NCBI GenBank assembly: GCA_965241395.1
Contig: CBDEOC010000059.1
Span: forward strand, 5,198 to 69,197
Length of the DNA: 64,000 bases
Source of the DNA: an uncultured Candidatus Saccharibacteria bacterium
GTDB taxonomy: Bacteria > Patescibacteriota > Saccharimonadia > Saccharimonadales > Saccharimonadaceae
Reading direction: 5' to 3'
Position numbers and translations under genes: made by a program. The notes below the pieces were generated by a model. That model had not been told where the DNA came from. It did no database searches and was given only the letters and a program-made list of their open reading frames with translations. Positions 5,061-54,226 of this stretch are shown piece by piece. Within the stretch, counting starts at the first letter, position 1. Each line of letters starts with the position of its first letter.

Positions 5061-5137
5061 GGCACCGTAGCTCAGCTGGTCAGAGCGTGGGACTCATAAG
5101 CCCGAGGTCACTGGTTCGAGCCCAGTCGGTGCTACCA
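5061..5137 (+). tRNA. tRNA with CAT anticodon (elongator Met, or Ile2 if lysidinylated), CCA encoded
   Basis: The cloverleaf can be drawn by hand: acceptor GGCACCG/CGGTGCT, anticodon loop CTCATAA, T-arm ACTGG TTCGAGC CCAGT. Overall it is most like elongator tRNA-Met. Confidence 0.85.
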
Positions 5138-5156
5138 AGTGGACTATACAATTGAT

Positions 5157-5234
5157 CGCGGGGTGGAGCAGTCTGGTCAGCTCGCTTGGCTCATAACCAA
5201 GAGGTCGTTGGTTCAAATCCAACCCCCGCCACCA
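5157..5234 (+). tRNA. Initiator tRNA-fMet (CAT), CCA encoded
   Basis: CGCGGGGTGGAGCAG...CTCATAA...GGTTCAAATCC closely resembles bacterial tRNA-fMet. It has an unpaired 1:72 position (C:C) and an A11:U24 pair. Confidence 0.8.
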
Positions 5235-6548: not shown

Positions 6549-7754
6549 GTGAAGTATATAGAACGGGCAGAGTATCTGAAAACTCTGCGAGAGCTAAAGG
6601 ATAAACATATCATTAAAGTGATTACCGGTGTGCGTCGTGCCGGTAAGTCTACTCTGATGCAACTCTTCAGAGAAGAAATAGCCCAAAAAATAGATAAGAG
6701 TCGGATCCAGTCATACAACTTTGAAGATCCAAAGTATAATGACATGACTAGCTGGCGGGAAGTCTATGACTTGATAGATAAGAAACTAGTGAAAGGTGAG
6801 CTGAACTATATTTTTCTTGATGAGGTCCAGGATATTCCGGGATTCGAAAAGCTGCTTGATGGACTATATATCAACGAGAATGTTGATCTGTATGTCACCG
6901 GCTCAAATGCCTACCTACTTAGCTCCGAGCTGGCGACTATTCTGACCGGTCGGGCTTATGAAATAAATATCCTACCTTTTTCGTTCAAAGAGTTCGCTCA
7001 GACTTACGCAAACTCGGCTGACGATAGTATAAAGTTTGAGCATTTTATGCGCTACTCAGCCTTTCCCCAAGCTACCGAGCTAATGCATCAGAATCCTGCT
7101 CTGGTTGTGAATTATCTAAGAAGCGTATATGAAAGCATCTTGGTAAAGGACATGCTTCCACGTAAACAGATATACGCTGAGCGTAGTTTTGAGAACGTAG
7201 TTAACTACGTGATGGATTCGATCGGTTCAAGCTTGTCACCTAATGGTATTGCTAGGGTTCTCGCTAGTGACAATAAAACGGTCGACTCTCGAACGGTTCA
7301 TTCATACTTGAAGTCGCTCTGCGATAGCTTCGTACTTTATAAAGCTGAGCGGTTTGACATTAAGGGTAGGCAAAATCTAGCGACACAGGAGAAGTACTAT
7401 GTAGTTGACCTTGGCTTTCGTAACTTACTACTTGGTAAAGAAGTCGGTCAAGATGCCGGTCATTTGTTGGAAAATGTTATCTACTTAGAATTGAGGCGAC
7501 GAGGTAATGAAATATGGGTCGGTAAGATTGGCGAAAGGGAGGTAGATTTCGTTGCTCGTGATAATGAAGGGTATCTAACATACTATCAAGTGGCCTATAC
7601 TGTGCGAGATGAAGCAGTGCTGAAGCGTGAGTTGGCGCCCTTTGATAAGATCCCTGACCATAATCCCAAAGTTCTTATCACTCTTGATCCGGAAGAAGTC
7701 TCCCGGCGCGGGGTGCGGCAAGTCAACGCAATCAACTGGCTACTTAGTGATTAA
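6549..7754 (+). CDS. COG1373-type AAA+ ATPase with a DUF4143-like C-terminal domain (ATPase-1)
   Basis: Walker A VITGVRRAGKSTL, Walker B IFLDEVQ and a C-terminal EVDFVARD...YYQVAY module. GTG start. Confidence 0.8.
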   Translation: MKYIERAEYLKTLRELKDKHIIKVITGVRRAGKSTLMQLFREEIAQKIDKSRIQSYNFEDPKYNDMTSWREVYDLIDKKLVKGELNYIFLDEVQDIPGFEKLLDGLYINENVDLYVTGSNAYLLSSELATILTGRAYEINILPFSFKEFAQTYANSADDSIKFEHFMRYSAFPQATELMHQNPALVVNYLRSVYESILVKDMLPRKQIYAERSFENVVNYVMDSIGSSLSPNGIARVLASDNKTVDSRTVHSYLKSLCDSFVLYKAERFDIKGRQNLATQEKYYVVDLGFRNLLLGKEVGQDAGHLLENVIYLELRRRGNEIWVGKIGEREVDFVARDNEGYLTYYQVAYTVRDEAVLKRELAPFDKIPDHNPKVLITLDPEEVSRRGVRQVNAINWLLSD

Positions 7755-8535: not shown

Positions 8536-10487
8536 TCAAGCTTGGCGATGTCGCTCTGCTCTCTCTGACCAAGCTTCATACTCGGAAGATTAGGACGATT
8601 ATCACGATACTGCTTACCAGCATACTGTTCGGTGTTTTGGTCATGGGGTCTTTGGTGACTAACGGTGTATTTCGAGGAGTAGATAGCTTTAAGCGGAACG
8701 GGCTGACCGGACGCTACATCGTTAGTGTTGCTAAAGCGTTTGATAGCAATGCCGGCACTACAACTTCTAAAGACCCTATCCTGATAGCCGAGGCGAAGAA
8801 GCGGTATCAACAGCTGGTCAAAGCTAAGACAGTGGAAGCGAAGCGACTGGGTATAGACTACTTGCAGGAAAGTGACGATCCGCCGTATTCACGCCTTGAT
8901 GATAACAGTGAGATGCTCAAGCCGAGCGATTCTAACGGCATCATTCACCGGCTTCTCAAGGAGAAGTTTAGCGGCCAGCCGGTTATCGACGAGACAACAC
9001 TTAGGAAGCGTGCCGGCAAATATCATAGCATCGGCATATATAAAGAGCTGTACTACACACCGGTGACAGGGTCATCTTTATTACACTTGAAAGACGGCAG
9101 AGAAGCTTTTTACGATATTTCCAAAGATGCGGTGAAGAATGCAAATGATATCAGGTCGCCACTTGGTGATGGTCGCCTGATAACAGCTCCGGACAGCCTG
9201 GTCAGCTCGTTTATCTTGCCACATAATGCCAGCTGGCAGCCGGACGGCCAGAGCTTGCCGATCATATTACCTCGGGATGTGGTCGAGCATTTACTGGGCT
9301 TGGGCAAGCTACCGGATAACGCCTCGACTAAGGAGCGCTTGGATCGGCTACACCTCATCTATGATAAGGCAAAAGACCTAACTTTTCAGATGTGTTACCG
9401 TAATGACGTATCGCAGGCACAGATCCAACAAGCTATCCGGCAACGACGGGAGATCAATGCTAATAAAGGCAAGAAGGACTATCAAATGCCTTCTCTGGTC
9501 TACGCTTTACCTGATGCAACTAAGTGTCAGAACGCCATCACTATCCGAGATACTCGGACGGCTGAGGAGAAGAAACAGGATGCTAATCAGAAGATATTTG
9601 ATGTTAGATTCGGCAAAAATACCGAGCCGATCAGTGCTATGGTGACCTTTAAGGTGGTCGGTGTGTCTCCGGCGATGAACGATAGCGTGACGGATCTCAG
9701 CCAGCCCGGCAAGAAAGAGCGTTCACGGAGCTTTAAGGATATAGTTAATGATCTATTGCGGGTGGATAGTATCGGGCAGGTCATACCCCAATCACTCTAT
9801 GACCGGCTCCCGAATAAGTATGCCTATGCCGGTATATTTAGCTACACGCCAACTTACACATTTGGTAATGAAGACAATGTGCTGTACTTCGTCGAGTTCG
9901 CTACGGCGAAAGATGCTCAGAAGTTTATCGATGAACAGAGCTGTAGGACGCAGTATGACGGCACTTGCAAGCCGAGCGGGAGACTATATATGGCGGATCT
10001 CGTCTTTAGTAATAGTTCGGCGATCGACGATATTCAGAAGCAAGTTCGGATATGGCTCCATTACGCTATGTTGGCGGTAATCGTGCTAGCGGTCGCCATC
10101 ATGTGGATCACGGTCGGTCGGACGATAGTTGATGGTCGGCATGAGACAGCGGTTTTTCGGGCGATTGGCTTTAAGCGGGTAGATATCGCTAGCGTCTATA
10201 TCGTTTACACCATTCTCTTATCATTGCTTGTTACCACCTGTGCTTTCGGGTTAGGTATTATCGGGGCGCATTTGTTGGACGGACAGCTATCGCCCGGTTT
10301 AACTGCCCAGGCGCAATATGGCTTTAATGAGCTGAGCTCAGCCAAACGGATCAGTCTGGTCGGTTACGATTGGCATCAGTTAGGGTTGATCGCTATCATC
10401 TGCTTGGCTACCGGTCTCCTTAGTGCCGTCTTGCCCCTGATCCGTAATGTCCGCCGTAGCCCGATCCGTGATATGCGAGAAGAGTAG
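8532..10487 (+). CDS. FtsX-family ABC permease with a very large extracytoplasmic domain
   Basis: Its start overlaps the stop of the ATPase gene by 4 nt. It has an N-terminal TM helix, an extracytoplasmic region of about 480 aa, and a C-terminal FtsX-like three-TM module (FRAIGFKRVDIASVYIVYTILLSLLV). Confidence 0.75.
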   Translation: MIKLGDVALLSLTKLHTRKIRTIITILLTSILFGVLVMGSLVTNGVFRGVDSFKRNGLTGRYIVSVAKAFDSNAGTTTSKDPILIAEAKKRYQQLVKAKTVEAKRLGIDYLQESDDPPYSRLDDNSEMLKPSDSNGIIHRLLKEKFSGQPVIDETTLRKRAGKYHSIGIYKELYYTPVTGSSLLHLKDGREAFYDISKDAVKNANDIRSPLGDGRLITAPDSLVSSFILPHNASWQPDGQSLPIILPRDVVEHLLGLGKLPDNASTKERLDRLHLIYDKAKDLTFQMCYRNDVSQAQIQQAIRQRREINANKGKKDYQMPSLVYALPDATKCQNAITIRDTRTAEEKKQDANQKIFDVRFGKNTEPISAMVTFKVVGVSPAMNDSVTDLSQPGKKERSRSFKDIVNDLLRVDSIGQVIPQSLYDRLPNKYAYAGIFSYTPTYTFGNEDNVLYFVEFATAKDAQKFIDEQSCRTQYDGTCKPSGRLYMADLVFSNSSAIDDIQKQVRIWLHYAMLAVIVLAVAIMWITVGRTIVDGRHETAVFRAIGFKRVDIASVYIVYTILLSLLVTTCAFGLGIIGAHLLDGQLSPGLTAQAQYGFNELSSAKRISLVGYDWHQLGLIAIICLATGLLSAVLPLIRNVRRSPIRDMREE

Positions 10488-16034: not shown

Positions 16035-17303
16035 TTATGACATCTCTCTATCTAGACTATCTTCATTTAGCAGGAAGTCTAGAATGTTCATGATGACAAT
16101 GCCGTTCTCTTCACGGCCCGGTAGCATCAGATCGCCGGTGACGATGATTCTTTTGAAGAAGTCGTCGATATTATTAAGCGGACGAGCCTCAATTGCTCTC
16201 TTCTCGGTATCGTTTATGGTGAGTGCTGACTGGATGTAATATTTACGGTCGCCCTGGTTGGCTACGAAATCGATTTCGACATGCTTCTTGCTCTTTTCCA
16301 TAGTCTTTAGGTTACGCTCATAAATCTCTACAACTCCGACATCAACCTGATAACCACGGTGACGGAGCTCATTATAGATGACATTCTCCATGATATGATT
16401 CTCTTCTATCTGGCGGAAGCCGACAAACGAGTTGCGAATACCGATGTCGGTGAAGTAGTATTTCACCGGAGTATCCATATACTGTTTACCCTTGACATCA
16501 AATCTCTTGGCACATTCGATGATATACGACTCTTCTAGCTTGCCGAGATAATCGTTGATAGTATTATGGCTCAGACTTACGTTTACCTTGCTCTTAAAAG
16601 TATTTTCCAGCTTATACGGGTTAGTCAGTGAGCCGACACTGGAGGCAACGATCTCGATAAGCGATCGGAGAGCAGTATCATTTCTCACGCTGTGACGTTC
16701 AATGATATCTTTGAGATAGATGTTTTGTTGAACCTCGTTTAGATAGGACATCTTTTGCCTGCTGTCGGAGTAGTGCATGATGAGAGGGAGACCACCATAG
16801 CGGATGTATTCCTGCCAACCATCATACTTATTACTATCATAAGCAGTCATAAACTCAGCAAAGCTAAGCGGATACATATGAATCTGCTCACTCCTGCCGC
16901 GAAACTCAGTCACGATATCACTCGAGAGAAACTTGGAGTTGCTGCCGGTCACATAAACATTCAGGTTGCCTTTAGCGAGGAAGCTACTGAGGACACTCTC
17001 AAATCTATTGACTAGCTGGATCTCGTCTAAGAGAAGAAAGTACTCGGAGTTATCCTTTACCTGATCTAAGATAAATGCGTGGAGAGCCTCACGATCGTGA
17101 AGCTTCTCATTTTCGAGTAATTCCAGGTTGAGATAGATGATATGATCCTCCGGCACTCCATCAGAGATCAGGTAATCCTTGAAGATAGGGTTTAAGAGAT
17201 ATGACTTCCCGCATCGACGGACGCCGGTGATTACCTTGATAAGGGGGATGCCTCTCCGATCAATTAGCTCCTTTAGATAAGTATCTCGTTTAATTTCCTT
17301 CAT
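16035..17303 (-). CDS. COG1373-type AAA+ ATPase with a DUF4143-like C-terminal domain (ATPase-2)
   Basis: VITGVRRCGKSYLL, LLLDEIQ and a C-terminal VEIDFVANQGDRKYYIQSAL module. AAAAGGAG RBS. It is a paralog of ATPase-1. Confidence 0.8.
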   Translation of the reverse strand: MKEIKRDTYLKELIDRRGIPLIKVITGVRRCGKSYLLNPIFKDYLISDGVPEDHIIYLNLELLENEKLHDREALHAFILDQVKDNSEYFLLLDEIQLVNRFESVLSSFLAKGNLNVYVTGSNSKFLSSDIVTEFRGRSEQIHMYPLSFAEFMTAYDSNKYDGWQEYIRYGGLPLIMHYSDSRQKMSYLNEVQQNIYLKDIIERHSVRNDTALRSLIEIVASSVGSLTNPYKLENTFKSKVNVSLSHNTINDYLGKLEESYIIECAKRFDVKGKQYMDTPVKYYFTDIGIRNSFVGFRQIEENHIMENVIYNELRHRGYQVDVGVVEIYERNLKTMEKSKKHVEIDFVANQGDRKYYIQSALTINDTEKRAIEARPLNNIDDFFKRIIVTGDLMLPGREENGIVIMNILDFLLNEDSLDREMS

Positions 17304-30499: not shown

Positions 30500-31012
30500 A
30501 TGCAGCTGGCGGACGATGAAATTAGGTTAGCCTCGCCGGTAGTGGGCGATAGTATCGTTGATGGACCGGGGCTCAGAGCGGTGGTTTGGTGTCAGGGCTG
30601 TTACCGAGCCTGCCCCGGCTGCCACAACCCTGAGACCTGGGATGTCCAGGCCGGTACGGTGGTTAAGATTGATTGGGTCAAGCAAAAGTTGCGCCAGATG
30701 GAGGGGCAGACCGGACTAACGTTGAGTGGCGGTGAGCCGATGCTTCAAGCTAAGGCTTGTAAGGAGCTGGCCGACTGGGCACACCGAGAGATGGGCTGGA
30801 ATGTACTATCCTTCACCGGCTACCTGCATGACGACATCAAGGCGGGGCGAGACTGGTCAACCCCTGAGATGTGGGAGCTGGTCAAGTCGATCGATATGTT
30901 GATTGATGGACCGTTTATCCTGGCGGAGCGGGATTTATCGCTTAAGTTTCGAGGCTCTCGTAATCAGCGTTTACTACACCTCAAAGATGGCGAGATCGTC
31001 AAGGTTGAATAG
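30500..31012 (+). CDS. nrdG: Anaerobic RNR activating radical-SAM protein
   Basis: CQGCYRACPGCHNPETW cluster and LSGGEP, immediately after nrdD. Confidence 0.88.
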   Translation: MQLADDEIRLASPVVGDSIVDGPGLRAVVWCQGCYRACPGCHNPETWDVQAGTVVKIDWVKQKLRQMEGQTGLTLSGGEPMLQAKACKELADWAHREMGWNVLSFTGYLHDDIKAGRDWSTPEMWELVKSIDMLIDGPFILAERDLSLKFRGSRNQRLLHLKDGEIVKVE

Positions 31013-31035
31013 CTGAGTATGATAGAATATCAGCT

Positions 31036-32436
31036 ATGAATGCTGACGAAATCAGGCGACGATTCTTAGAGTGCGCCAAAGAACATGGGCATACGGTGAT
31101 TCCTCGTGCCAAGCTGGTGCCGGAGGATGATCAGACCACCCTATTTACCGGCTCGGGCATGCAGCCCTTACTCAAGTACCTGCTGGGCGAGCCTCATCCT
31201 CTGGGTACCAGGTTAGCCGACAGCCAGACTTGTGTTCGGGCGCAAGACATTGATGAGGTGGGAGATAATCGTCATACCACTTTCTTTGAGATGTTGGGTA
31301 ATTGGAGCCTGGGGGACTACTTTAAGCGAGACCAGATCACCTGGTTTTTTAACTTCCTGGTTGACGAAGTCGGTCTGGATCCACACCGACTATATGTGAC
31401 TTGCTTCGCCGGTGATCCGGAGAACGGCATCCCTCGGGACGATGAGGCAGCGCAGATCTGGCAAGAATTGTTCCAGAGTAAAGGGATCGAGGCTAAGTTG
31501 GCCGATATTGGCAGTGAGGCGCAGGGTGGTCAGCGAGGCATCAAGCCGGGTGAGCGGATCTTCTTCTATGATGGTAGCAAGAACTGGTGGAGCCGTAATG
31601 GTGGTCCGTCGACTACGCCGATGGGTGATCCTTGTGGCCCGGATAGTGAGGTCTTTTATGCCTTTGAGCATGTCGACCATGATCCGGCTTATGGTGATAA
31701 ATGTCACCCTAATTGCGATTGTGGTCACTACATGGAGATTGGTAACCAAGTCTTTACTCAGTACGTTCGTACTCCGGAGGGCTTCAAGAAGTTGCCGAAG
31801 CAGAACGTCGACTTCGGTGGCGGGCTGGAGCGGATTGCGGCGGCGGCGATCGACTCGCCGGATGTTTTCCGTACTTCTTTATTCATGCCGATTATTACTA
31901 AGCTGGAGCAGCTGAGCGGACGTAAATATGATGAAGAAAAACAAGCGATGCGGGTGATCGCTGACCATCTGAGAGCGGCTACCTTCTTAGCGGTTGATGG
32001 AGTTAAGCCGAGCAACAAGCAACAGGGCTATGTCATGCGCCGGCTAATCAGGCGAGCCATCCGCTTCGCCCTGGAGCTGGGGGTAGAGCAGAACTTCATG
32101 GAGGAGATCGTGCCGGTGGTAGCGGGGATTTACCGAGCGGACTTCCCTGAGGTAGAGGCAGGTCACGATGAGGTGGTAGCGGTACTGGTCAAGGAAGAAA
32201 AGGCTTTTCGTTGCACCCTGGCGAAGGGTCTAAGAGAGTTCGACAAGATGTCGGCTGATGGACTAACGGGTAGTGAGGTGTTCAAGCTATACGACACTTA
32301 TGGCTTCCCGATTGAACTATCGGTGGAGGAAGCGACTAAGCGCCGGCTCAGGATTGCCAATACCTGGCAAGCCGATTATAATGAGCTTATGAATCGCCAG
32401 CGCCAGCTCAGCCAAGCCGCAGGGAGGAAGTTCTGA
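31036..32436 (+). CDS. alaS: Alanine--tRNA ligase, aminoacylation plus tRNA-recognition domains only (466 aa; no editing or C-Ala domains)
   Basis: FTGSGMQP, GNWSLGDYFK and DFGGGLERI motifs. It ends in ...LYDTYGFPIELSVEEA...NRQRQLSQAAGRKF, roughly where the minimal active N-terminal fragment of E. coli AlaRS ends. The stop overlaps the next ATG (TGATG). Confidence 0.85.
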   Translation: MNADEIRRRFLECAKEHGHTVIPRAKLVPEDDQTTLFTGSGMQPLLKYLLGEPHPLGTRLADSQTCVRAQDIDEVGDNRHTTFFEMLGNWSLGDYFKRDQITWFFNFLVDEVGLDPHRLYVTCFAGDPENGIPRDDEAAQIWQELFQSKGIEAKLADIGSEAQGGQRGIKPGERIFFYDGSKNWWSRNGGPSTTPMGDPCGPDSEVFYAFEHVDHDPAYGDKCHPNCDCGHYMEIGNQVFTQYVRTPEGFKKLPKQNVDFGGGLERIAAAAIDSPDVFRTSLFMPIITKLEQLSGRKYDEEKQAMRVIADHLRAATFLAVDGVKPSNKQQGYVMRRLIRRAIRFALELGVEQNFMEEIVPVVAGIYRADFPEVEAGHDEVVAVLVKEEKAFRCTLAKGLREFDKMSADGLTGSEVFKLYDTYGFPIELSVEEATKRRLRIANTWQADYNELMNRQRQLSQAAGRKF

Positions 32437-33368
32437 TGTCATCTCTGCGAATGCAGTATCAGATGCCCATCCACGACCTCAATCGTTATCTTGCCGTAGC
32501 TAACGGTTACTATACTGTCAGGAAGATTACGAGAGCGCTGGAGACGCAAGCGTCGCAACGACATAGTATCCTATCTTGTAAAATACAATATAGTGTCGAT
32601 TATTATCGGATGATTCTAAACATTGAGTGTTGTAACGTTGACCAAATAAGCTCGGCTATCATGTCGGCTATAAGTGGTGGTCAAACGGTTGATAACGAGA
32701 TGATAAACAAATGCCTTAATCAGCTTCCGGCCAGGTTTGGAGAGCGTATTGAGTTGGCTAATGAATATATCCAGGAAAATATGACAAGCTTATGGCGAAT
32801 GGGGTGCTTGCCGATCATTGATACTGAGATAATAGAGGATATTTTGCCGGATAGCTTGTCTTCCGAGGACAATAAGACCTGTGTCAAACGTCGGATGCCT
32901 GTACAGCGGGGGATCTGGACGATTGATCTGGAGCTAAAACAGATAGATCTGACAGATCGAGTACTTTTGCCGATCATAATGACAACGATTGGTGGTCTGA
33001 TGGATAATATGGCATACTTGCACGGGCTACACTACCTGGGTGGTAAGATTATTAACGGTGATAGCGACAACGCATCACTTCGTTACAATTGTTACCACGT
33101 TCCATCCATTAGCTGTTCAATCGAAGACTTCCGATCTGAGTTGGAGCAGAAACTGGCGCAAGAAAGCTTTTATGATGAGGATGTCGACAATCTGATTATG
33201 ATGATCGAAGAGCAGATTATGTGCTTTGATCCGGTAGACGACTACCTTGAGACGGGCGTGCTAATTGATCGAAACAAGCTGATGTACCATGTGATGACCA
33301 AAGATAATCTAAATGCGACTCTGGCAAAGGTAAAGGTTAGATCTATAAGCAATGGAGGCATTGACTAG
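32436..33368 (+). CDS. M16-peptidase-like paralog A1 (no zinc motif)
   Basis: Paralog of 35139-36134 (RMQYQMP/RLQYQLA; LLPIIMTTIGGLMDNMAYLHG/LILPVVRMMINDQLDLLTRSFG). It has the shared C-terminal motif DNLNATLAKVKVR. Confidence 0.55.
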   Translation: MSSLRMQYQMPIHDLNRYLAVANGYYTVRKITRALETQASQRHSILSCKIQYSVDYYRMILNIECCNVDQISSAIMSAISGGQTVDNEMINKCLNQLPARFGERIELANEYIQENMTSLWRMGCLPIIDTEIIEDILPDSLSSEDNKTCVKRRMPVQRGIWTIDLELKQIDLTDRVLLPIIMTTIGGLMDNMAYLHGLHYLGGKIINGDSDNASLRYNCYHVPSISCSIEDFRSELEQKLAQESFYDEDVDNLIMMIEEQIMCFDPVDDYLETGVLIDRNKLMYHVMTKDNLNATLAKVKVRSISNGGID

Positions 33369-34392
33369 TATGAATGTGACTGACGGGATATCATCAGTAG
33401 AGACTCCGAAGAGACTGTTTGTCTTTAATGCCGAACTTGATGGGACGATAGATCTTTCAATCGTGGGGATATATCTTTTCTATCTTGCTGATCAACTAAG
33501 CAACCATTTATGCACCGAGCGTCACGTTAAGACTATTAGTAGCCTGTGCGGACTACGCTATTTAGGCTTTCGACATCGTATGATCGTCCGAGTTAATGTA
33601 TGCGATGAGATGGTGTATGGGCTAGTGCTACGCTTCCTTACCCAAGGTCTGAAAGCTCCTAATGACGAACAGCTGAGACGATGTATAGCCAAGCTTGAAA
33701 CTGCTTGGAACATCAATTATCTGATCAAGGACGAGAAAAAGTTTCGTGAGGAAGTAGAGCGACTGGTCCATACAAAGTTCTATAATCTAAGCGGTGACGA
33801 TACTATCTACTATGACAAGCCGACGGGTAAAGGATCCGACATAGAAGCTGACCGGTTAGGTTTCCAGCCTCCCAGTCGGCCGGTCATTCAGTTAGAGCCA
33901 AATATAACAATACTCAGACCGACAAGGACGGATTTGATTTTACTGTCTACTTTGACCGGTTATGTAGGTGGTGTACTGGCACAGGTTATGAGCGATAAGT
34001 ATAATGCTTACAAACTAGGTCAGGTTATGATACCGTCTAAAGCAGGATACAAGATGAAGTTCGGATATTTATTTAAGCAAGAGCAGGATCTGATATACAG
34101 TCTGCGGACTGATATAGAACGTATCCTGCGTGACCTGTCTAATAAGGGGGATGTAGCCGAGCTTGAACAGCTGGTAAGGAGCATTACCTACACTTCGTAC
34201 CGCTATAGCCCGGGAGCCGAGTACATTAATTCCGGTCTGGTTGTATCAACTAAGATTTTCTTAAAGAGGTATATGACGGTCGATAATTTACATAGCGCCA
34301 TTAGTAGACTACGGTTGAAGGACATAGAGAAGTTCCATTTTGGCGGAAGTCGTCATGGTGAGTCTGAGCCGGCGAATATCATTATTGGCTAA
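33352..34392 (+). CDS. M16-peptidase-like paralog B1 (degenerate zinc site)
   Basis: Aligns with B2, but has GIYLFY where B2 has HIYEH. The start is either 33352 (overlapping A1) or 33370. C-terminal motif DNLHSAISRLRLK. Confidence 0.55.
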   Translation: MEALTSMNVTDGISSVETPKRLFVFNAELDGTIDLSIVGIYLFYLADQLSNHLCTERHVKTISSLCGLRYLGFRHRMIVRVNVCDEMVYGLVLRFLTQGLKAPNDEQLRRCIAKLETAWNINYLIKDEKKFREEVERLVHTKFYNLSGDDTIYYDKPTGKGSDIEADRLGFQPPSRPVIQLEPNITILRPTRTDLILLSTLTGYVGGVLAQVMSDKYNAYKLGQVMIPSKAGYKMKFGYLFKQEQDLIYSLRTDIERILRDLSNKGDVAELEQLVRSITYTSYRYSPGAEYINSGLVVSTKIFLKRYMTVDNLHSAISRLRLKDIEKFHFGGSRHGESEPANIIIG

Positions 34393-34627
34393 GAGCTAAG
34401 GTAAGCTTTATCGGTTAAACTCAGCCGGGCTAAGTGAGCGGTATAGCTCAATAATCTTGTTTCAATGACTTTATCCACTAATCTATCCATGGTAACAACC
34501 AGGATAAATGCAACCTGTCTCCATGACACAAAGATCTGATCTGTAAAAAGAAAAAGAAGCAAAAAGAAAAACATCCTAGAAAGACAGAAGAGAAAGCTTA
34601 AACTAACAGACCAAAGTCTTAAATAGT

Positions 34628-34786
34628 TTAAAAATAGTTGTCCAATAACACCGACTTGCGGTTCATATTGGTAGCCGCCACAATGCCGTCTATTATGGCT
34701 GTCTTCTTGCTAATACTAGCCTTGCTGTAGGCTACAGCATGAAACCTAATTATCTCTTTCATACCCATTCTACTTATTCCTTTCAT
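34628..34786 (-). pseudogene. Transposase/integrase N-terminal HTH fragment (52 codons)
   Basis: MKGISRMGMKEIIRFHAVAYSKASISKKTAIIDGIVAATNMNRKSVLLDNYF* resembles the Y.KAS.KEK..ILDE....TG..RK N-terminus of Mu-like DDE integrases. No catalytic domain follows. Confidence 0.35.
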
Positions 34787-34798
34787 AACGCAGAACAG

Positions 34799-34858
34799 GG
34801 TAACCGTGGCTTATGGGCTAACGACTAGCTAATGGGTAACCTTATTTATGAGATAATG
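34799..34858. repeat. Copy Y of the ~60-nt repeat family seen at 17462-17520
   Basis: GGTAACCGTGGCTTATGGGCTAACGACTAGCTAATGGGTAACCTTATTTATGAGATAATG. It lies 12 nt upstream (minus strand) of the transposase fragment, consistent with an IS end. Confidence 0.6.
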
Positions 34859-34961
34859 GGGGCTTTATCGAAGAGAACATTTGTCGTATACTATTTGTAG
34901 TCCCGTTAATTCAGTAAACGGGGAAGGGGTGCTTTGCATCCTCGTACATTTGGAGGCTCAT

Positions 34962-35120
34962 ATGAGCAGAAGAGAACCAAAAGGTAAGCCCAAGTCGGAT
35001 CAATCTATAAAGAAGAGTCTTGATCGAAAGAAGGCACAAGGTAATCGACCATGCAAAACTATTGATAAGGGGGCGCATGGAACAAACACTGGCCAGAGTG
35101 GTCAACCACCGCGTAGGTAG
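34962..35120 (+). CDS. Small, very basic hydrophilic protein (52 aa)
   Basis: GGAGG (34952-34956) sits 5 nt before the ATG. The sequence is MSRREPKGKPKSDQSIKKSLDRKKAQGNRPCKTIDKGAHGTNTGQSGQPPRR. A promoter-like TTTGTCGTATACT lies at 34877-34889. The longer track ORF (34881) would begin inside that promoter. Confidence 0.45.
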   Translation: MSRREPKGKPKSDQSIKKSLDRKKAQGNRPCKTIDKGAHGTNTGQSGQPPRR

Positions 35121-35138
35121 TGTCTGAAGAGGGGTGAG

Positions 35139-36134
35139 GTGCTAGGTTCTTTTGGCGAGGTCGTCGCTGGTTTGTATTGTTGGCGACCTCGCTTTATCCA
35201 GGGTATTATGATTTATCGTCTGCAGTATCAGTTAGCTACACCGGGGCTTGATTATCGCCTGGGAGCGGTTAACAGTATCTGCGTGGCGACGAAGATTATT
35301 GACGGTTTGGCGGAAGCAGGTTTTCCTTATAGTAGCAGTGTCTGTTGGATCAGGCGAATGGCTTTTCAGCAGAGGCTAATTTTATACATTGAATGTATTT
35401 CGGCTCAAGTGGCCGAAGCTGTTGATCGGATTGTGCAGTCACACCACGTCCTTTCTGAAGCACAACTTGATAGCTGCCTGACTCAGGCGGAAGCGATGCT
35501 AGGGGAGACTATTTATCTAGATAAAGTTCGCTTTTATCAGGTTATGGCTGAGCTATTGAGCCGAGGGATGACTTCTCTTCCGAATGATCCGGGGGCAATA
35601 GCTGACCCGGCACTTGACCGGTCTTTTCGCTATGACTGGATTAGCTCTCGTCGTGACTATCGGTCTTTCCGACTTCAGATGATCTACCTCCGGGTTGTTC
35701 AGCCTGGCTTGACTGATCGTCTCATCCTGCCGGTCGTTCGGATGATGATCAACGATCAGCTGGACCTGCTGACTCGATCCTTTGGCGCTAGTTATAACTA
35801 TAGCTCGGTAATGGATTATGGTGATGACAACCTAACTCTACACTACCGATATCTGACAAGGCGCCAGCTTAGTCGTTGTCAATTCCGGCATCAACTGGAG
35901 CAACTACTGAGTCAATTAACGGTTAGCGAGCGAGACTGTGACTACTTTCGTCGATCAATTCAAGTCGGCATGCGTTACTTTAGCCCGGTGGATGTTTACT
36001 CTAGTAGCGGGTTGTTGACTGGGGCGGATGATTTGGTGAAGAATATCAACGTCGAGAATATAAATCGGACTCTACGACGACTCAGGCTCAGAGCGATTGA
36101 TTACTTAGAGGCAACTGAGGCTGACTATGCTTGA
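35139..36134 (+). CDS. M16-peptidase-like paralog A2 (no zinc motif)
   Basis: Paralog of A1. The start is either the GTG at 35139 or the ATG at 35208 (MIYRLQYQ, which aligns with the A1 N-terminus). C-terminal motif ENINRTLRRLRLR. Confidence 0.55.
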   Translation: MLGSFGEVVAGLYCWRPRFIQGIMIYRLQYQLATPGLDYRLGAVNSICVATKIIDGLAEAGFPYSSSVCWIRRMAFQQRLILYIECISAQVAEAVDRIVQSHHVLSEAQLDSCLTQAEAMLGETIYLDKVRFYQVMAELLSRGMTSLPNDPGAIADPALDRSFRYDWISSRRDYRSFRLQMIYLRVVQPGLTDRLILPVVRMMINDQLDLLTRSFGASYNYSSVMDYGDDNLTLHYRYLTRRQLSRCQFRHQLEQLLSQLTVSERDCDYFRRSIQVGMRYFSPVDVYSSSGLLTGADDLVKNINVENINRTLRRLRLRAIDYLEATEADYA

Positions 36135-37143
36135 TCAGTTGCCGCCCAGTGACCTGGCGTCAGGTAACGACCTGAAGAGGCTCTACTTTATCGTTAAACT
36201 TGACTCAAAGGTGATTGACAGTCGAGTGGCTCATATCTACGAACACTGCCTGGTAGAGCAGCTATCTGATTACCTACGTCGGGAGTGCCGGACCAGGTTC
36301 CCCGGTATCTTCCTCAGCTATGGAGCCACTACCTTTCTCGGCTATATCATGTTTCAGTTTGCTACTAGGGACGAGCAAGCGATGGGTCCGGTTCGGCAGT
36401 TCTTTCGGCAGAGTCGCTCTGTACCTGGACCTGCGATATTGGAGCAGTGTCAGCGGAGTGTCGAAGCCGAAGTGGGTATGACTTATCAGATTGATGACAG
36501 GGCGAAGTTTCTGGGAATGATTCACTTACTGACTGGGCTTCATTTTACCGAATTAGCAACCGGTCGGCCGGTTTATAGCGCAGTGACACCGGTGCGCCGA
36601 GCTTACCATGCTCCTTGGCTGCGCCAGCGGCAGGCTAATCGGTCTTTTCGGCGGATGCGGATCCACCTGGAGATCGCTGAGCCGAGCCTTAGTGACTATG
36701 TCATATTACTTAGCTTGACCGATCTACTGCGGGATTTGTGGCGGGAAGTGATGAATAGAACAGGAGCTTATACCCTTGAGCAATGGGTGGAAACTAATGG
36801 GGACAGGTTGGTGGTTAATCTGACTTACTTGGTACATCGTGATATCAAGCGACGACAGCTAACTAGCCAGCTGGGGCGAGCTTTATTGACTGAACTGAGC
36901 CGTGCTGAGCTAGATCGGTCGATTAGTGAGGTTAAGAGAGCCGGTTCGACTATCTTTTACCCCGATCAACTATATGACCTGACGGGTCGATTAATGACTA
37001 CCGAGGTGGCACTAGAGAAGTGCTTGACTGTAGAAAATCTGCGTCAGGCGCTAGGGCGGTTACGTCTAGCCGGAGTAGTCTACGAACCTCTTTCCAGAGA
37101 ATATTATGGCTACGATAATCAAAGTAGTGAGTATCCGAGATAA
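36127..37143 (+). CDS. M16-peptidase-like paralog B2 with an intact HxxEH...E zinc signature
   Basis: AHIYEH (H36, E39, H40; nt 36232-36246), GATTFLGYIMFQF and E106-x6-E113. It overlaps A2 by 8 nt, with GAGG 6 nt before the ATG. Confidence 0.6.
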   Translation: MLDQLPPSDLASGNDLKRLYFIVKLDSKVIDSRVAHIYEHCLVEQLSDYLRRECRTRFPGIFLSYGATTFLGYIMFQFATRDEQAMGPVRQFFRQSRSVPGPAILEQCQRSVEAEVGMTYQIDDRAKFLGMIHLLTGLHFTELATGRPVYSAVTPVRRAYHAPWLRQRQANRSFRRMRIHLEIAEPSLSDYVILLSLTDLLRDLWREVMNRTGAYTLEQWVETNGDRLVVNLTYLVHRDIKRRQLTSQLGRALLTELSRAELDRSISEVKRAGSTIFYPDQLYDLTGRLMTTEVALEKCLTVENLRQALGRLRLAGVVYEPLSREYYGYDNQSSEYPR

Positions 37144-37203
37144 CACCCCCGTGTTGCACGTATTTAATAGGCATAACCGATTATGTTGTATAATAGTTAG
37201 CAT

Positions 37204-38457
37204 ATGAAGCTTTTTTCACGGGTCGAGGAGACCGATCAGTATATCGTCGCCTTAGATATCGGGACGGTCTACACCAAGGCTCTGATCGCTAAACTGATTG
37301 ATGATAAGCTGAGGGTAGTCGGGGTTGGTCGGGCCCGCCAAGAGACAGGCAACATGTTTGGTGGAGCTATCGCTGATATCACCGGTGTAGTCAAGAACTG
37401 TGAGGTAGCGCTGGCCAAAGCGGAGGATCAGGCCGGTGTCCAGGCTAAGAAGGTGGTGATTGGTATCGCCGGCGAGTTCGTTAAGGGGATTACTTCAACT
37501 ATTCGTTATAAACGTCCCAACCCGGATCATCAGCTGAGTGAAGCGGAGATGCAGCTGATCATTGACAAGGTGCAAGAGAGGGCTGCCACTAAGGCGCAGA
37601 AACAGATCGCCTTTGAGACGGGCAATCCTGATGTCGAGGTCAAGCTGGTTAATGCTGCTATCGTCAGTATTCATATCGACGGCTACAAGGTTAGTAACCC
37701 AATCGGCTTCCAGGGTAAAGACGTGGCGATCCAGATCTACACTGCATTTGCACCGATGGTTCATATCGGGGCGCTGGAGCGGACGGCAACTGAGCTAAAC
37801 TTAGAGTTGGTGGCAGTGGCAGCCGAGCCCTTTGCGGTAGCTCGGGCAGTGCTGGGGGCAGATGAGAGTCCCAACTATACAGCGATATTGTGCGATGTCG
37901 GTGGTGGTAGTACTGATATTGCTGTGGTAAATGACGGCGGAGTGGAAGGTACCAAGTGCTTTGGCGTGGCCGGTCGATCCTTCACTAAGACGATCAGTGG
38001 CGACCTAAGCATTGGCTATGAGGCTGCCGAGAAGCTCAAGCTTAATATTGACGGAGGCAAGATCAAGCCTAACGTACTCCGGACGGTCAATGAGTCGATC
38101 GACAATACTCTAGATGTCTGGATTAGTGGTGTGCAGCTGGCGCTGAGCGAATTTGATGCTATCGACCATCTGCCGAATAAGTTCTTACTCTGTGGTGGCG
38201 GTTCGTCACTGGGTGCTTTAGTCGATCGTCTGGAGACATCAAACTGGTACAAGGACTTGCCTTTTTCGAGACGACCGATCATCAAGCACGTTCGCCCTAG
38301 CGATGTATCAGGCATAGAGGATGAGACCGGCGAGATCACCGACCACACTCTGATTACCGCCCTGGGGCTTTTGCGAGTAGGCTATGATACAATGGAGTCA
38401 GTCACGGGGACGAAGGAGACGTTCCGAGATAAAATAGATAGAGTACTAAGGATATAA
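37204..38457 (+). CDS. ftsA: Cell division protein FtsA (actin-like ATPase)
   Basis: ALDIGTVYTK, an SHS2-type insert and DVGGGSTDIAVV. The whole sequence looks like FtsA. Confidence 0.85.
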   Translation: MKLFSRVEETDQYIVALDIGTVYTKALIAKLIDDKLRVVGVGRARQETGNMFGGAIADITGVVKNCEVALAKAEDQAGVQAKKVVIGIAGEFVKGITSTIRYKRPNPDHQLSEAEMQLIIDKVQERAATKAQKQIAFETGNPDVEVKLVNAAIVSIHIDGYKVSNPIGFQGKDVAIQIYTAFAPMVHIGALERTATELNLELVAVAAEPFAVARAVLGADESPNYTAILCDVGGGSTDIAVVNDGGVEGTKCFGVAGRSFTKTISGDLSIGYEAAEKLKLNIDGGKIKPNVLRTVNESIDNTLDVWISGVQLALSEFDAIDHLPNKFLLCGGGSSLGALVDRLETSNWYKDLPFSRRPIIKHVRPSDVSGIEDETGEITDHTLITALGLLRVGYDTMESVTGTKETFRDKIDRVLRI

Positions 38458-38458
38458 G

Positions 38459-40228
38459 ATGGCGAAGCTTGATAGTCAGAGAGTCAAGGTCAGAGTAGCG
38501 AAGCGAGGGCGAGACGATACGCCAAGTTCCGGCTTACAGGGTCGGGGTCTGATCTACATTGATACTGACGACGATGTGACTTCTATCGTAGGCAAGATTA
38601 AGGCTGCCAAAGAGACAGTTGTGGCGCTAGTGCCGCCTAAGCGCATCGGAGTACTGCAGAGCGCAGTTAACCTGAAGCTATTACAACGAGCAGCTAAGCT
38701 GGCGCATAAGCGTCTCAGTATCGTTACCTTGGATAAGGCGCTGACCAACTTAGCCTCCGGCCTAGCCATTCCGGTGGCTAAGAATATCAATGCTCAGGCG
38801 AGATTACTGGAAGTTGATAACGTCGATGATGATGACGATGACATCATTGACGGGCGTAATGAAGCGATTGGTAGGCTGGATGACGTTGCCAGAGAGTCAG
38901 CGGGAGAGCGGATGGATGATGATATATCCGTGGCTGTGGCGGCTATCGAGACGGACGATCATATCAAGAACGACGCTGATGGTGACGGCGTGGCTGACGA
39001 TGAAGCCCCCGGAACGACGAAGCGGCCGACCGGTAAGCGAATCAAGATCCCTGATATCGGCGATCTGAGAAAGAAGATTTTACTAATCGGTGGAGGCTTG
39101 ATACTGCTGATTGGGCTGATCGTCTGGGCGCTCGTTATCGCTCCTCAAGCGATTATTACCATCAAGGCGAAGACAACTGCTGTTGATATTGAGCGGACAC
39201 TTAACTTAGTGCCGTCCGGCGAGCGTAATGACGAGCAGGGTATCCTGCCCCCGGTCATCAAGCAAAAGAAAGCTAACGAGATAGTGCAGTTCAACGCTAC
39301 CGGTACTAAGGAGGTCGGTACTAAGGCGACCGGTACAGTGGCTTTTTGCTATAACGCTACTCCTAATGACTCCTATAGCGACACACCGAAGAAGAATAGT
39401 ATTACCATTGAAGCGGGTACCAGATTATACGCTAGCGGCATGCAGTTCACGACTGACGGTGATGTGACGGTTATCGGCGGTAAAGATGCTTCGGGAGAGT
39501 GCAAGACTTATCATAGCGTCAAAGCGACAGCGGTGAACATCGGCCCCGAAGGCAATATCGAGAAGAATACCGCCCTTTCCGTCTCGGGCTATTCTTCCAG
39601 TAAAGTGACAGCCCTGGCTAAAGTGACCTTCAGTGGCGGTAATAAGCAGACGGTTAAGGTGGTGTCGCAAGCTGATGTCGATACGGCGGTAGCGGCGTTA
39701 AAGAAAAAAGGTGATAGTAATGCCGCTAAGAAAGACCTGGCCAGTCAAATGTCCGGCTCGGTAGTAACCATCAGTAACAGCTTTAGCGTCGGACAGAGTG
39801 AGGTGAAAGTATCGCCGGCGGTGGGCGAGCAATCGTCCGGTCAAGCGACCGCCAGTATGGAAATTACCTACACCCTGATGGGGGTTAGTCGGGGTGATCT
39901 AAAGGGGATGTTGTCTCACCAGCTGAATAGCAAAAAACGCCCTGACCAGAAGATTTATAGCGATGGCGTTAAAGAAATAGCGTTTAGCGGCTTCGCTCCA
40001 GCCCAGAATGGCTATGTAGTTGCTATTAAGACTACCGGTAAGTTAGGACCGCAAGTGGATGAAGCTAGCGCCAAGCGCCAGGCGACAGGTCGTAAATCAG
40101 AGGAGGTTAAGTCGCTGCTCAAGCAGACCGAGGGTGTTAGCGATGTTAACGTAGCGCTGTCGCCCTTCTGGGTTAGTCGGGTACCGGCTGTGAATAAGAT
40201 AAAGGTTGTTTATACGGTCGATCAATGA
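38459..40228 (+). CDS. Bitopic membrane protein: cytoplasmic N-domain, acidic linker, TM helix and a large external domain (possibly baseplate-J/gp47-like)
   Basis: Its ATG is 1 nt after the ftsA stop. There is a DDDDDD linker and a TM helix ILLIGGGLILLIGLIVWALVIAP. The external part has ATGTVAFCYN...ITIEAGTRLY, reminiscent of CPR proteins annotated as baseplate J-like (from memory, unverified). Confidence 0.5.
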   Translation: MAKLDSQRVKVRVAKRGRDDTPSSGLQGRGLIYIDTDDDVTSIVGKIKAAKETVVALVPPKRIGVLQSAVNLKLLQRAAKLAHKRLSIVTLDKALTNLASGLAIPVAKNINAQARLLEVDNVDDDDDDIIDGRNEAIGRLDDVARESAGERMDDDISVAVAAIETDDHIKNDADGDGVADDEAPGTTKRPTGKRIKIPDIGDLRKKILLIGGGLILLIGLIVWALVIAPQAIITIKAKTTAVDIERTLNLVPSGERNDEQGILPPVIKQKKANEIVQFNATGTKEVGTKATGTVAFCYNATPNDSYSDTPKKNSITIEAGTRLYASGMQFTTDGDVTVIGGKDASGECKTYHSVKATAVNIGPEGNIEKNTALSVSGYSSSKVTALAKVTFSGGNKQTVKVVSQADVDTAVAALKKKGDSNAAKKDLASQMSGSVVTISNSFSVGQSEVKVSPAVGEQSSGQATASMEITYTLMGVSRGDLKGMLSHQLNSKKRPDQKIYSDGVKEIAFSGFAPAQNGYVVAIKTTGKLGPQVDEASAKRQATGRKSEEVKSLLKQTEGVSDVNVALSPFWVSRVPAVNKIKVVYTVDQ

Positions 40229-52942: not shown

Positions 52943-54226
52943 CTAATTCTTTAGACAGCCAATCGGGACGATATAGATGCCGTCGTCTTGACGGTAGGCG
53001 TAGTTGGTGGTAGCTGTCAAAATCATTAGGAATGACGGCTGGCGCATGACTTCAGTGTCAACGCTATCGACGAATCGCCGCAGTGATCTCGAGCCTTCAC
53101 TGATGGAGGTCTCGTCTGACCCGAGCTTAATCTCAATGGCTCCCCATTTGCCATCCGGTAGATGAATGATAGCATCGCACTCTCGACCGGCTTTATCTCG
53201 ATAATAATATAGACGACCATCTAGGCTTTCGGCATAAATCTTCAGGTCACGTAACGCCATAGACTCAAAGACCAGCCCAAATGTCCGATAGTCCAGGCGC
53301 AGGTCATTCTCCGAAGCAAGTAGTGCTGCTACAACGAGTGACGGGTCGGTAAAGTTTCGTTTCCAGCCTGATCTGATAGCAGTCTTACTCCTTAACTGTG
53401 GCGACCAGGGTTCAACGTCGTCAAGGATATGTAAACGGTTCAGTGTCTCCAGATATGACGATAGTGTCTTGTCGCTGATCGTTTCACCCGAGCCGATAAC
53501 GTCATTCATGATCGTCTGACCGGTTACCGGTGAGGCGATGTTGCGAGCTAGGCTTCGTATGACGGCTCTCATCTTGGGAGTGGAGAAGGAGATGTCGTTG
53601 TCTAAGTCGGTCATCGATTCGTTAGTCAGGATGACCTCCAAGTAATCACGAGCTAACTTGCCGGCGTTGGTCGGATTACGCTTGACGCTAGCCGGCCAGC
53701 CACCACGGGTACAGAGTCGGGCAATATCCTCAGGTGTCAATCCGGCTTCTCCGGCGATATTTTCATTATCACAAAAAAGGCTTTTTAGTGAAACGGCGCC
53801 ATTAGACTCGCCGGATTCGTAGAGACTCATGGGGCGCATGATTAGTCGGACTATGCGCCCGGCGCCGGAGTGGGCGGGCTTGCTAACTTTAGGCGTGGAT
53901 GAGCCGGTCAAGATATATTGTCCGGTCAGCCCGGTCTTGTCAACATCGTAGCGAATAGCATCCCAGATAGCGGGCGTATCTTGCCACTCATCAATCAGAC
54001 GGGGCTTGTCGCCACTAAGTAGGATACCGGGGTCTGACTTGGCGATAGCCTTGTTGTTCTCGGCGGTAGTAGGGTTCTGCATCTCGATGGAGCTGTTAGC
54101 CAGCTGACGAGCAGTGGTTGACTTGCCACACCATTTACAGCCCTCCAACGATACGGCACCGTAAAGCTCCAAGTTTTCTCTGAGTACATCATCCATTAGT
54201 CGGGGGATATAGTCGCTGTCTTTCAT
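52943..54226 (-). CDS. COG1373-type AAA+ ATPase with a DUF4143/PD-(D/E)xK-like C-terminal domain (ATPase-3)
   Basis: Walker A LEGCKWCGKSTTA, Walker B LIDEWQ and a C-terminal RECDAIIHLPDGKWGAIEIKLG (D...E.K). It belongs to a different subfamily from ATPase-1 and ATPase-2. Confidence 0.8.
   Translation of the reverse strand: MKDSDYIPRLMDDVLRENLELYGAVSLEGCKWCGKSTTARQLANSSIEMQNPTTAENNKAIAKSDPGILLSGDKPRLIDEWQDTPAIWDAIRYDVDKTGLTGQYILTGSSTPKVSKPAHSGAGRIVRLIMRPMSLYESGESNGAVSLKSLFCDNENIAGEAGLTPEDIARLCTRGGWPASVKRNPTNAGKLARDYLEVILTNESMTDLDNDISFSTPKMRAVIRSLARNIASPVTGQTIMNDVIGSGETISDKTLSSYLETLNRLHILDDVEPWSPQLRSKTAIRSGWKRNFTDPSLVVAALLASENDLRLDYRTFGLVFESMALRDLKIYAESLDGRLYYYRDKAGRECDAIIHLPDGKWGAIEIKLGSDETSISEGSRSLRRFVDSVDTEVMRQPSFLMILTATTNYAYRQDDGIYIVPIGCLKN

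Follow-up and report, generated by a model that had tools for sequence, protein, structure and literature searches.

A candidate peptide-linked pair of small M16-like proteases in oral Saccharibacteria and a mobile companion pair without a zinc site

A stretch of 64,000 nucleotides (nt) from an uncultured Candidatus Saccharibacteria bacterium (GenBank assembly GCA_965241395.1, contig CBDEOC010000059.1, positions 5,198 to 69,197 of the forward strand; the whole of it is called the window here) holds four related genes in two overlapping pairs, A1/B1 (pair 1) and A2/B2 (pair 2). To judge from their sequences, the products belong to an unannotated family of mini M16-like proteins of about 300-340 amino acids (aa) that is absent from Pfam. 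What is newly seen is a smaller variant of the M16 metallopeptidases that is invisible to sequence profiles, a conserved cognate-peptide module, and a mobile pair that has no zinc site. The explanation joining these, a reduced M16 pair A2/B2 acting on a small cationic peptide encoded just upstream (pep), with pair 1 as a mobile site-less copy, seems slightly better than evens.

An earlier note, made from the letters of this DNA, had described four M16-like open reading frames (ORFs) in two overlapping pairs, and all four were recovered on the plus strand at the coordinates and lengths given there. They are set out below with pep and the predicted zinc-site codons; E-values are for the hidden Markov model (HMM) of the family, and non-synonymous (dN) and synonymous (dS) divergences are Nei-Gojobori estimates.

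32436..33368, plus strand: A1, 310 aa, A-type mini M16-like paralog with VANGY replacing HxxEH and PAR replacing ExE; family HMM E = 3e-56; 21 copies, dS 0.014
33352..34392, plus strand: B1, 346 aa, B-type mini M16-like paralog with a degenerate zinc motif (GIYLF, ETA) that is fixed in 21/21 copies; family HMM E = 4e-60; dS 0.030
34962..35120, plus strand: pep, for a cationic peptide of 52 aa, low in complexity and with a net charge of +9, MSRREPKGKPKSDQS...HGTNTGQSGQPPRR; candidate cognate substrate
35208..36134 (or from 35139), plus strand: A2, A-type mini M16-like paralog with AVNSI and EAM; family HMM E = 3e-76; intact in 52/52 loci, dN/dS 0.17
36127..37143, plus strand: B2, 338 aa, B-type, the sole paralog of the four with an intact HxxEH...E site
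36232..36246, plus strand: B2 codons for H36-I-Y-E39-H40, the inverted motif with two predicted His ligands and the predicted catalytic Glu
36469..36471, plus strand: B2 codon for E115, predicted distal zinc-ligand Glu, 79 residues past H36

A1 and B1 overlap by 17 nt and A2 and B2 by 8 nt (ATGCTTGA). B1 may instead start at an ATG at 33370 (340 aa); a GGAGG precedes this codon by 11 nt, and the overlap with A1 would then disappear. A2 would be 331 aa from a GTG at 35139 or 308 aa from an ATG at 35208, and the ATG seems the more likely start because the alignment with A1 begins there, because a strong stem-loop (35132-35199) sits within the GTG-started extension, and because homology to other strains breaks at 35148-35223. 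Pair 1 is AT-richer than pair 2, as had been judged by eye (GC 0.435/0.440 against 0.482/0.507), with the flanks at 0.51-0.54.

The paralogy of the four proteins is confirmed far beyond chance by BLASTP, which relates A1 to A2 (27% identity, E = 5e-22), B1 to B2 (25%, E = 4e-18), A2 to B2 (30% over 231 aligned positions, E = 2e-19) and A1 to B1 (17%, E = 3e-5). They can be aligned over their full length with D190, L194, Y215, P279, Y283, G287 and N304 invariant (B2 numbering), and all four have the C-terminal (D/E)N(L/I)...L.(R/K)(L/V)(R/K)(L/V) motif and an internal D..(I/L)L...(G)xY block, so the proposal of one family in which A1 goes with A2 and B1 with B2 holds up. Searched exhaustively with HMMER, a set of 1.84 billion representative proteins yielded 57 relatives, nearly all of 290-335 aa and matched over their full length, and the family alignment of 56 sequences has the consensus AHLYEH, then G(E/T)TF, then (E)-x6-E. 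In a cluster look-up the members had no name in any source, and no prior description was found in the literature on Saccharibacteria M16, AlbEF, Saccharibacteria alanyl-tRNA synthetase (AlaRS) or Nanoperiomorbus.

Within the window only B2 carries the zinc motif, as had been noticed: it has H36-I-Y-E39-H40, GATTF, E106, E113 and E115, and A1, A2 and B1 are degenerate or lack the motif. The earlier note had made its proposal depend on conservation among orthologs, and both HxxEH and E113-A-E115 are invariant in 53/53 B2 alleles, though B2 has an overall dN of 0.13. Across the 56 members H36 is kept in 49/56, E39 in 49/56, H40 in 51/56 and E115 in 52/56, and position 108, a Cys in B2, is Glu in 23/56. 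The motif is missing only from A1, from A2 and the representative of its cluster, from B1, and from P0031 and P0037, which are A-type proteins from two other oral lineages; one more sequence is N-terminally truncated. In the AlphaFold model the HxxEH of B2 falls in a predicted helix (32-53), and after a helix at 198-210 comes a G-x-Y (G213 39/56, Y215 48/56 and invariant in the four paralogs). E115 lies 79 residues after H36, inside the 76-81 residues that separate this His from the distal Glu in solved M16 enzymes (PMC12731061). In the HHalign comparison with canonical Saccharibacteria M16, AHLYEH pairs with PHLYEH, E115 with the distal Glu, and C108 with the Glu that opens E-x6-E; the family E-x6-E is predicted to map to positions 108 and 115, with E115 and not E113 as distal zinc ligand. 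Of the inverted motif order read earlier in B2 the HxxEH part stands, and the E106-x6-E113 part is two residues out of register, because of this alignment of E115 and the 79-residue spacing.

Placement of the family in M16 is supported by modelled structure and not by sequence profiles. An AlphaFold2 model of B2 built from the 56-sequence alignment is confident (predicted local distance difference test score 88, predicted template modelling score 0.88) and contains a beta-alpha-beta-beta-alpha-alpha-alpha unit twice, at residues 17-143 and 165-321. Foldseek of this model against the PDB gave 228 matches at E <= 1e-3. M16 proteins fill all of the first 50 places, each at probability 1.0, the top M16 matches having E-values of 1e-7 to 1e-5, and so the structural check proposed in the earlier note came out in favour of M16. 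Entries among these 50 include bc1 core proteins, an H. pylori protease, IDE, the AlbEF homolog 7y8u, TTHA1264/1265 and PqqF; a shallower first model of B2 returned M16 only, an identical outcome, and the best matches in the viral structure library BFVD are M16/M44 zinc proteases. Homology of the mini family to clan ME is very probable. As to the description miniature, the subunits are indeed shorter at 300-340 aa, but short M16B subunits were known already and so the difference is one of degree; AlbF and AlbE, at 366 and 381 aa, are the smallest described (PMC12731061).

Like the window clade, two further human-oral lineages (L062-L064 and L065-L067) have a site-less A gene followed by an overlapping B gene that carries HLYEH. 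The overlaps in L062 and L066 are 4-8 nt, making three lineages with the window's pair 2, and the active/inactive pairing proposed earlier is thus seen again outside the window clade; every other family member is a single gene with HxxEH. In a neighbour-joining tree, read together with best BLAST hits, A1, A2, L062A and L066A form an A-type clade, B1, B2, L062B and L066B together with two single-gene members form a B-type clade, and environmental single-gene members branch outside both. Since A and B are separate clades, the two types would go back to an ancient duplication, and a single loss of the site on the A side, that predate pairs 1 and 2, and so B1 would have lost its zinc site secondarily. 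The A2/B2 pattern fits that of an M16B heterodimer with one active and one inactive subunit, from which dimerisation may be inferred by analogy, and an active A2/B2 heterodimer is reasonably likely. Pair 1 fails this pattern, the zinc site being gone from both of its members.

A GGAGG Shine-Dalgarno sequence stands in front of pep, whose frame is intact in 35/36 loci with dN/dS of 0.19. That pair 2 is linked to a small basic peptide gene had been noted before, and distant lineages show the link as well. In L062 a homologous 51-55-aa peptide comes before the A/B pair and has ...PKGSPKSDQS...GQSGQQQRR in common with the window pep, despite proteases only ~20% identical to A2/B2. Cationic same-strand ORFs (net charge +9 to +16, rich in G/S/N/Q/K/R) also lie directly upstream in L066, L056, L070/L072, L073, L074 and L077. 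Overall 8-9/13 unique contexts have an upstream cationic ORF, where chance would give about 0.03 for each upstream slot (the background of such ORFs is 0.2 per kb with both strands counted). A core H(H/N)...[SG]QSG[QS], a motif derived post hoc, is found in 6/1482 small ORFs, all six being upstream ones, and the peptides matched no family in Pfam or NCBIfam. In L054 the pep homolog (about 8731-8967) has a premature stop (…SLD*KKAQ…) and A2 and B2 are intact. Two further elements flank pep:

34827..34961, plus strand: pep promoter and 5' untranslated region (5'-UTR), with a TATACT -10-like box, two small hairpins and GGAGG, conserved with L066 and L062
35132..35199, plus strand: pep-A2 stem-loop, an inner 10-bp GC-rich hairpin at 35157-35190 and then a T-rich stretch, terminator-like

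The pep-A2 stem-loop has a minimum free energy of -30 kcal/mol and is a putative attenuator or mRNA-stabilising element. Its z-score is -2.4, and the stem-loops between peptide and protease genes elsewhere score -4.7 (L062), -3.8 (L066), -6.6 (L056), -2.4 (L072), -8.3 (L073) and -4.9 (L074), making seven lineages with the window in which the order is peptide gene, hairpin, protease gene or genes. A hairpin 3' of the peptide gene is typical of precursor-peptide operons, and the layout resembles that of operons making a small precursor in excess over its processing enzymes. The recurrence of this order in at least seven divergent lineages argues for pep as most likely a dedicated substrate, and that A2/B2 act on it stands at about even chances. 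The smaller hairpins of the 5'-UTR (window 34893-34961, L066 4422-4495, L062 347-413) are a separate observation: their stems seem compensatory between lineages (first hairpin CCCGTT/AACGGG, CCCAC/GTGGG and CCTGC/GCAGG; second GGGTGC/GCATCC and GGGG/CCCC), their folding energies are not significant (z -0.6 to -1.3), and an Rfam scan of 31000-37500 gave no match.

The locus is found 54 times in GTDB species-representative genomes, all annotated as Saccharibacteria, and in Candidatus Nanoperiomorbus periodonticus (TM7 G5, HOT 356) B2 is 100% identical. NrdD, NrdG and the AlaRS fragment AlaN lie on one side, and FtsA, a 589-aa protein (p589) and RuvX on the other. The flanking proteins are mostly 98-100% identical among loci, though in a few loci the figure for RuvX and NrdG drops to 95-96%, and among related loci identity ranges over 69-100% for A2 and 62-100% for B2. 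The divergence estimates are:

NrdG, AlaN, FtsA and p589: dN 0.003-0.007, dS 0.22-0.31, dN/dS 0.01-0.02
RuvX: dN 0.016, dS 0.19, dN/dS 0.08
A2: dN 0.10, dS 0.62, dN/dS 0.17
B2: dN 0.13, dS 0.46, dN/dS 0.29
pep: dN 0.12, dS 0.63, dN/dS 0.19

Pair 2 is fast-evolving and recombining. The B2 alleles are mosaics of blocks: residues 1-30, ~125-270 and ~300-338 each come in two haplotypes, variously combined, around a nearly invariant catalytic region at residues 31-124, and frequent recombination between deeply diverged alleles is therefore indicated. The genome of the window is itself recombinant, its pep and A2 being like those of L026-L032 and its B2 like that of L001-L004.

Pair 1 has a different history, and its surroundings need to be laid out for this:

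31036..32436, plus strand: AlaN, truncated alanine-tRNA ligase of 466 aa with the catalytic and tRNA-recognition domains only
32354..32382, plus strand: promoter-like site TTGCCA-17-TATAAT, 11/12 consensus matches, within the 3' end of AlaN and ~55 nt upstream of A1
32435..34826, no strand: variable cargo slot, here holding pair 1 and an AT-rich tail, defined by blastn breakpoints
34393..34826, no strand: AT-rich tail of the pair-1 cargo, with GC of 0.397 over 34393-34961 and short minus-strand ORFs at 34389-34574 and 34628-34786

The left break of the slot falls at the AlaRS stop codon (32434) by blastn, and the right break at 34827 in L008-type, 35148 in L013-type and 35208-35223 in L001-type genomes. 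Its contents differ: A1/B1 with the AT-rich tail in 21 loci; a 498-aa SLFN_AlbA_2 + HATPase_c_4 + Fic-like_C protein with PADLOC pAgo-associated model matches at 1e-23 (L008 7185-8681); a GNAT acetyltransferase with the remnant of a Schlafen-like gene (L013 7958-8896); or nothing. The slot after the AlaRS stop codon looks like a gene-exchange hotspot. Pair 1 is absent from the remaining related loci with a readable slot, and the AT-rich tail is present only in genomes that have pair 1. In the same 21 genomes dS is 0.014 for A1 and 0.030 for B1 against 0.25 for AlaN and 0.21 for FtsA, 10-18 times lower, so pair 1 has spread recently across genomes that had already diverged; nothing in the 1.84-billion-protein library is closer to it than A2/B2, at 25-27% identity, which argues that the donor lineage is unsampled. 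The earlier suggestion of a mobile element behind the acquisition or duplication of the second module is therefore turned round, as it is pair 1 and not pair 2 that behaves as recently acquired. Nor did the transposase remnant said to separate the pairs survive: the ORFs of the AT-rich tail were considered for this part and it was rejected, as neither Pfam nor PHROG gave a match between the pairs that would point to a transposase, and the borders of the cargo carry no terminal repeats.

The AlaRS upstream is truncated, as had been said. AlaN matches Pfam tRNA-synt_2c (1.1e-108) over positions 1-431 of 552 and NCBIfam NF002436 over positions 1-439 of 595, and has no editing or C-Ala domain; the 'small-AlaRS' of candidate phyla radiation (CPR) and DPANN organisms consists of catalytic, ATL and editing parts (bioRxiv 10.1101/2023.05.29.542759), and AlaN is shorter still. 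It is full-length at 466 aa in 38/38 related loci recovered, with dN/dS of 0.02, which argues that this is a functional native form. The TGA stop of AlaN and the ATG of A1 share one base (TGATG). The promoter-like site at 32354..32382 may drive the slot cargo; it is a consensus match only, and the number of such sites in the region is not significantly above that in shuffles. The link between pair 1 and the truncated AlaRS, to which the earlier note had drawn attention, is best seen as incidental, because the AlaRS stop borders a slot that holds other cargo or none in sister genomes, and because family members of other lineages are not adjacent to AlaRS and have unrelated neighbours (rpsL, DHH, CYTH, a lipase, a HAD hydrolase).

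Taken together these observations suggest the following route and mechanism. The ancestor would have been a single gene with AHLYEH and E-x6-E and a two-domain alpha/beta M16 (clan ME) fold in reduced form, and in oral Saccharibacteria a duplication would have made of it a tandem, translationally coupled pair whose zinc site survived in B and disappeared from A. By analogy with MPP alpha/beta (mitochondrial processing peptidase) and AlbE/AlbF, A2 and B2 would together make up a clam-shell chamber that has just one active site, in which H36, H40 and E115 of B2 would bind zinc with E39 as general base, and A2 would supply the other half of the chamber. The operon would run from pep through the stem-loop to A2 and B2, the stem-loop keeping the peptide in excess over the enzyme, with pep being processed or degraded by A2/B2. 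Pair 1 would most likely act as a non-catalytic binder or regulator that sequesters the peptide or forms mixed dimers with pair 2.

A number of results weigh against this explanation. Pfam Peptidase_M16 (PF00675) and Peptidase_M16_C (PF05193) do not match any of the four proteins at E <= 10, and no relevant Pfam model is matched by the 56 family members at E <= 1; an NCBIfam scan of the four proteins and PDB profile searches with an ortholog profile and a family profile also gave nothing, so the profile evidence the earlier note had looked to did not materialise. HHalign against canonical Saccharibacteria M16 (L059-L061) is weak (E = 3.6e-4, probability 37%, 78 columns). Even for the confident B2 model the Foldseek TM (template modelling) scores are only 0.25-0.38, with root-mean-square deviations of 12-17 A, and the likeness is therefore one at the domain level, with a global packing that may differ from that of canonical M16. 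The E-x6-E of B2 opens with a Cys in place of Glu, and conservation is also missing for the Arg of the M16 R/Y pair (residue 211 is Arg in 6/56). For the peptide, ~16/52 related loci have no peptide gene upstream of an intact A2/B2, and none was seen upstream of the family gene in L059, L068 and L069. Alleles of pep, A2 and B2 recombine freely, and a proposed allele-specific co-variation of pep and protease is contradicted by these recombinant combinations. Finally pN/pS, the ratio of non-synonymous to synonymous differences, is never above 1 in any 30-codon window of A2 or B2, and positive selection on the pair thus finds no support.

Some of these points would be expected if the mini M16-like proteins were general cytoplasmic oligopeptidases recycling peptides in an auxotrophic episymbiont, the cationic ORF being an unrelated product of the same transcript such as a nucleic-acid binder. 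Prokaryotic M16B enzymes are generally viewed as broad peptidasomes (PMC12731061), A2/B2 stay intact in the ~16 related genomes that have no upstream peptide, and some single-gene members also have no obvious one. Such a housekeeping role is nevertheless unlikely: the adjacency of peptide and hairpin is kept at 15-25% protease identity, far above the chance level of ~0.03, other Saccharibacteria already encode a canonical 424-aa M16, and a pair-2 dN 20-50 times that of the neighbouring core genes is unexpected for a housekeeping enzyme. Alternatively all four proteins, B2 included, might be pseudo-enzymes working as a scaffold or chaperone like the bc1 core, with HxxEH holding a structural metal. 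Three of the four have no site and yet are intact ORFs under some constraint (dN/dS 0.17-0.29), dead M16 pairs such as yeast core I/II are established (PMC12731061), and in B2 neither the Glu that opens E-x6-E nor the canonical Arg of the R/Y pair is present. E39, however, is no metal ligand and is conserved like the ligands (49/56 in the family, 53/53 among B2 alleles), which is the pattern of catalysis and makes this reading rather improbable.

Variability of the kind seen here could also reflect an arms race, were the proteins to degrade exogenous cationic antimicrobial peptides or to be part of a defence island. The adjoining slot holds a Schlafen/AlbA_2-HATPase_c_4 gene in sister genomes (the PADLOC pAgo-associated match at 1e-23), dN is elevated and the alleles are mosaic, and the accessory M16 enzyme HrrP, which degrades NCR peptides, is a precedent (PMC12731061). 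But PADLOC and PHROGs match none of the four proteins and a scan of viral contigs found no relatives, an obvious N-terminal hydrophobic signal is not seen by eye in any of the four, which are probably cytoplasmic, a window with pN/pS above 1 is wanting, and the self-encoded cationic peptide is left unexplained; a defence function is improbable. Far more remote still is the idea that the H-x3-H of B2 is an AlaX-type zinc site editing in trans for the truncated AlaRS. HIYEH does fit HxxxH, the adjacent AlaRS has no editing domain and the 64-kb window contains no CGGxH motif of the AlaX type. Against this B2 has no CxxxH motif, no AlaX, ThrRS or AlaRS editing domain is among the top 50 Foldseek matches, and the family is elsewhere not beside AlaRS, with unrelated cargo after the AlaRS stop in sister genomes; the identity of B2 with an AlaX or editing domain is ruled out by fold and synteny.

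The reading of A2/B2 as a reduced, peptide-linked M16 pair can be set beside the known systems. With the M16B heterodimers (MPP alpha/beta, TTHA1264/1265, Sph2681/2682) pair 2 has in common adjacent homologous subunit genes, a two-domain alpha/beta fold (here a predicted one), and one subunit with HxxEH and a distal Glu ~79-80 residues downstream next to a site-less partner. MPP and its rickettsial counterpart RPP prefer positively charged peptides (PMC12731061), which accords with a co-encoded pep of net charge +9. It differs from them in subunits of 300-340 aa rather than 400-480 aa, in having no Pfam M16/M16_C match, in C108, in the unconserved R/Y Arg, in a glycine-rich loop that is not obvious by eye, and in a global TM of 0.25-0.38. 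AlbE/AlbF of subtilosin and the M16B pairs of ribosomally synthesised and post-translationally modified peptide (RiPP) systems (PDB 7y8u) likewise have paired small subunits (366/381 aa) and a small precursor peptide encoded with them, 7y8u_F ranks high among the Foldseek matches of B2, and a precursor-like peptide gene adjacent to peptidase genes is as in RiPP leader-peptidase systems. Unlike these precursors pep is long, disordered and rich in Lys/Arg/Gly/Ser/Asn/Gln, with no Cys-rich core and no sign of a leader and core. No AlbE/AlbF-type modifying enzyme, radical SAM protein or exporter is linked to the genes here or in the other lineages, the sole nearby radical SAM gene being the NrdG activase next to NrdD.

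Single-gene members of the family all have HxxEH, as expected of a homodimer with two active sites and so like homodimeric M16B enzymes (BHP/YmxG), from which the system here differs in size, in sequence divergence and in its dedicated upstream peptide gene. Pair 1 resembles cytochrome bc1 core I/II in that both members are site-less intact ORFs, but it is recently spread accessory cargo and no subunit of a respiratory complex. HrrP, the M16A protease of a Sinorhizobium accessory plasmid that degrades cationic NCR peptides, is similarly accessory, strain-variable and concerned with small cationic peptides, but it is a large single chain acting on host peptides, and here the peptide is self-encoded in the same operon.

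Elsewhere in these genomes, a canonical 424-428-aa M16 (PF00675/PF05193) is encoded beside a single-gene mini member in L059 (15325-16599) and L060 (15052-16338), and the mini family is therefore additional and not a replacement; no canonical M16 is found within the 64-kb window. The 589-aa protein between FtsA and RuvX (38459-40228) has no Pfam match, an acidic low-complexity stretch and a predicted hydrophobic segment, is 98-100% conserved in the clade and may have a lineage-specific role in cell division. The 64 kb, part of a very small genome, contain three paralogous ATPase genes of the AAA_14 + DUF4143 type (6549-7754 on the plus strand, 16035-17303 and 52943-54226 on the minus strand), an unusual copy number for this family, and two tandem tRNA-Met (CAT) genes lie at 5061-5234 with 20 nt between them.

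M16 has been defined by subunits of ~45-50 kDa or single chains of ~100 kDa. If the explanation favoured here is right, a profile-invisible lineage of 35-39 kDa with an HxxEH/Glu site would lower the size limit of the clam-shell peptidasome and offer a minimal model of its chamber. The locus also presents a pseudo-enzyme pair as mobile cargo, and an exchange hotspot right after an essential and unusually truncated AlaRS gene. More speculatively, and with perhaps a modest chance of being right, Saccharibacteria and probably other CPR bacteria would have a so far undescribed module of two or three genes made of a cationic disordered peptide, a stem-loop and a mini clan ME peptidasome, in which the peptide, matured or degraded by the peptidasome, would be a signalling, regulatory or toxic effector and the mobile site-less A1/B1, spreading between genomes, would modulate the module as a non-catalytic binder, for example by antitoxin- or immunity-like sequestration of the peptide. 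Saccharibacteria have very few recognisable peptide systems in their small genomes, and a peptide-linked protease is thus a directly testable candidate for a regulatory or effector pathway, which if true would amount to a new class of protease-peptide system in ultra-small episymbionts.

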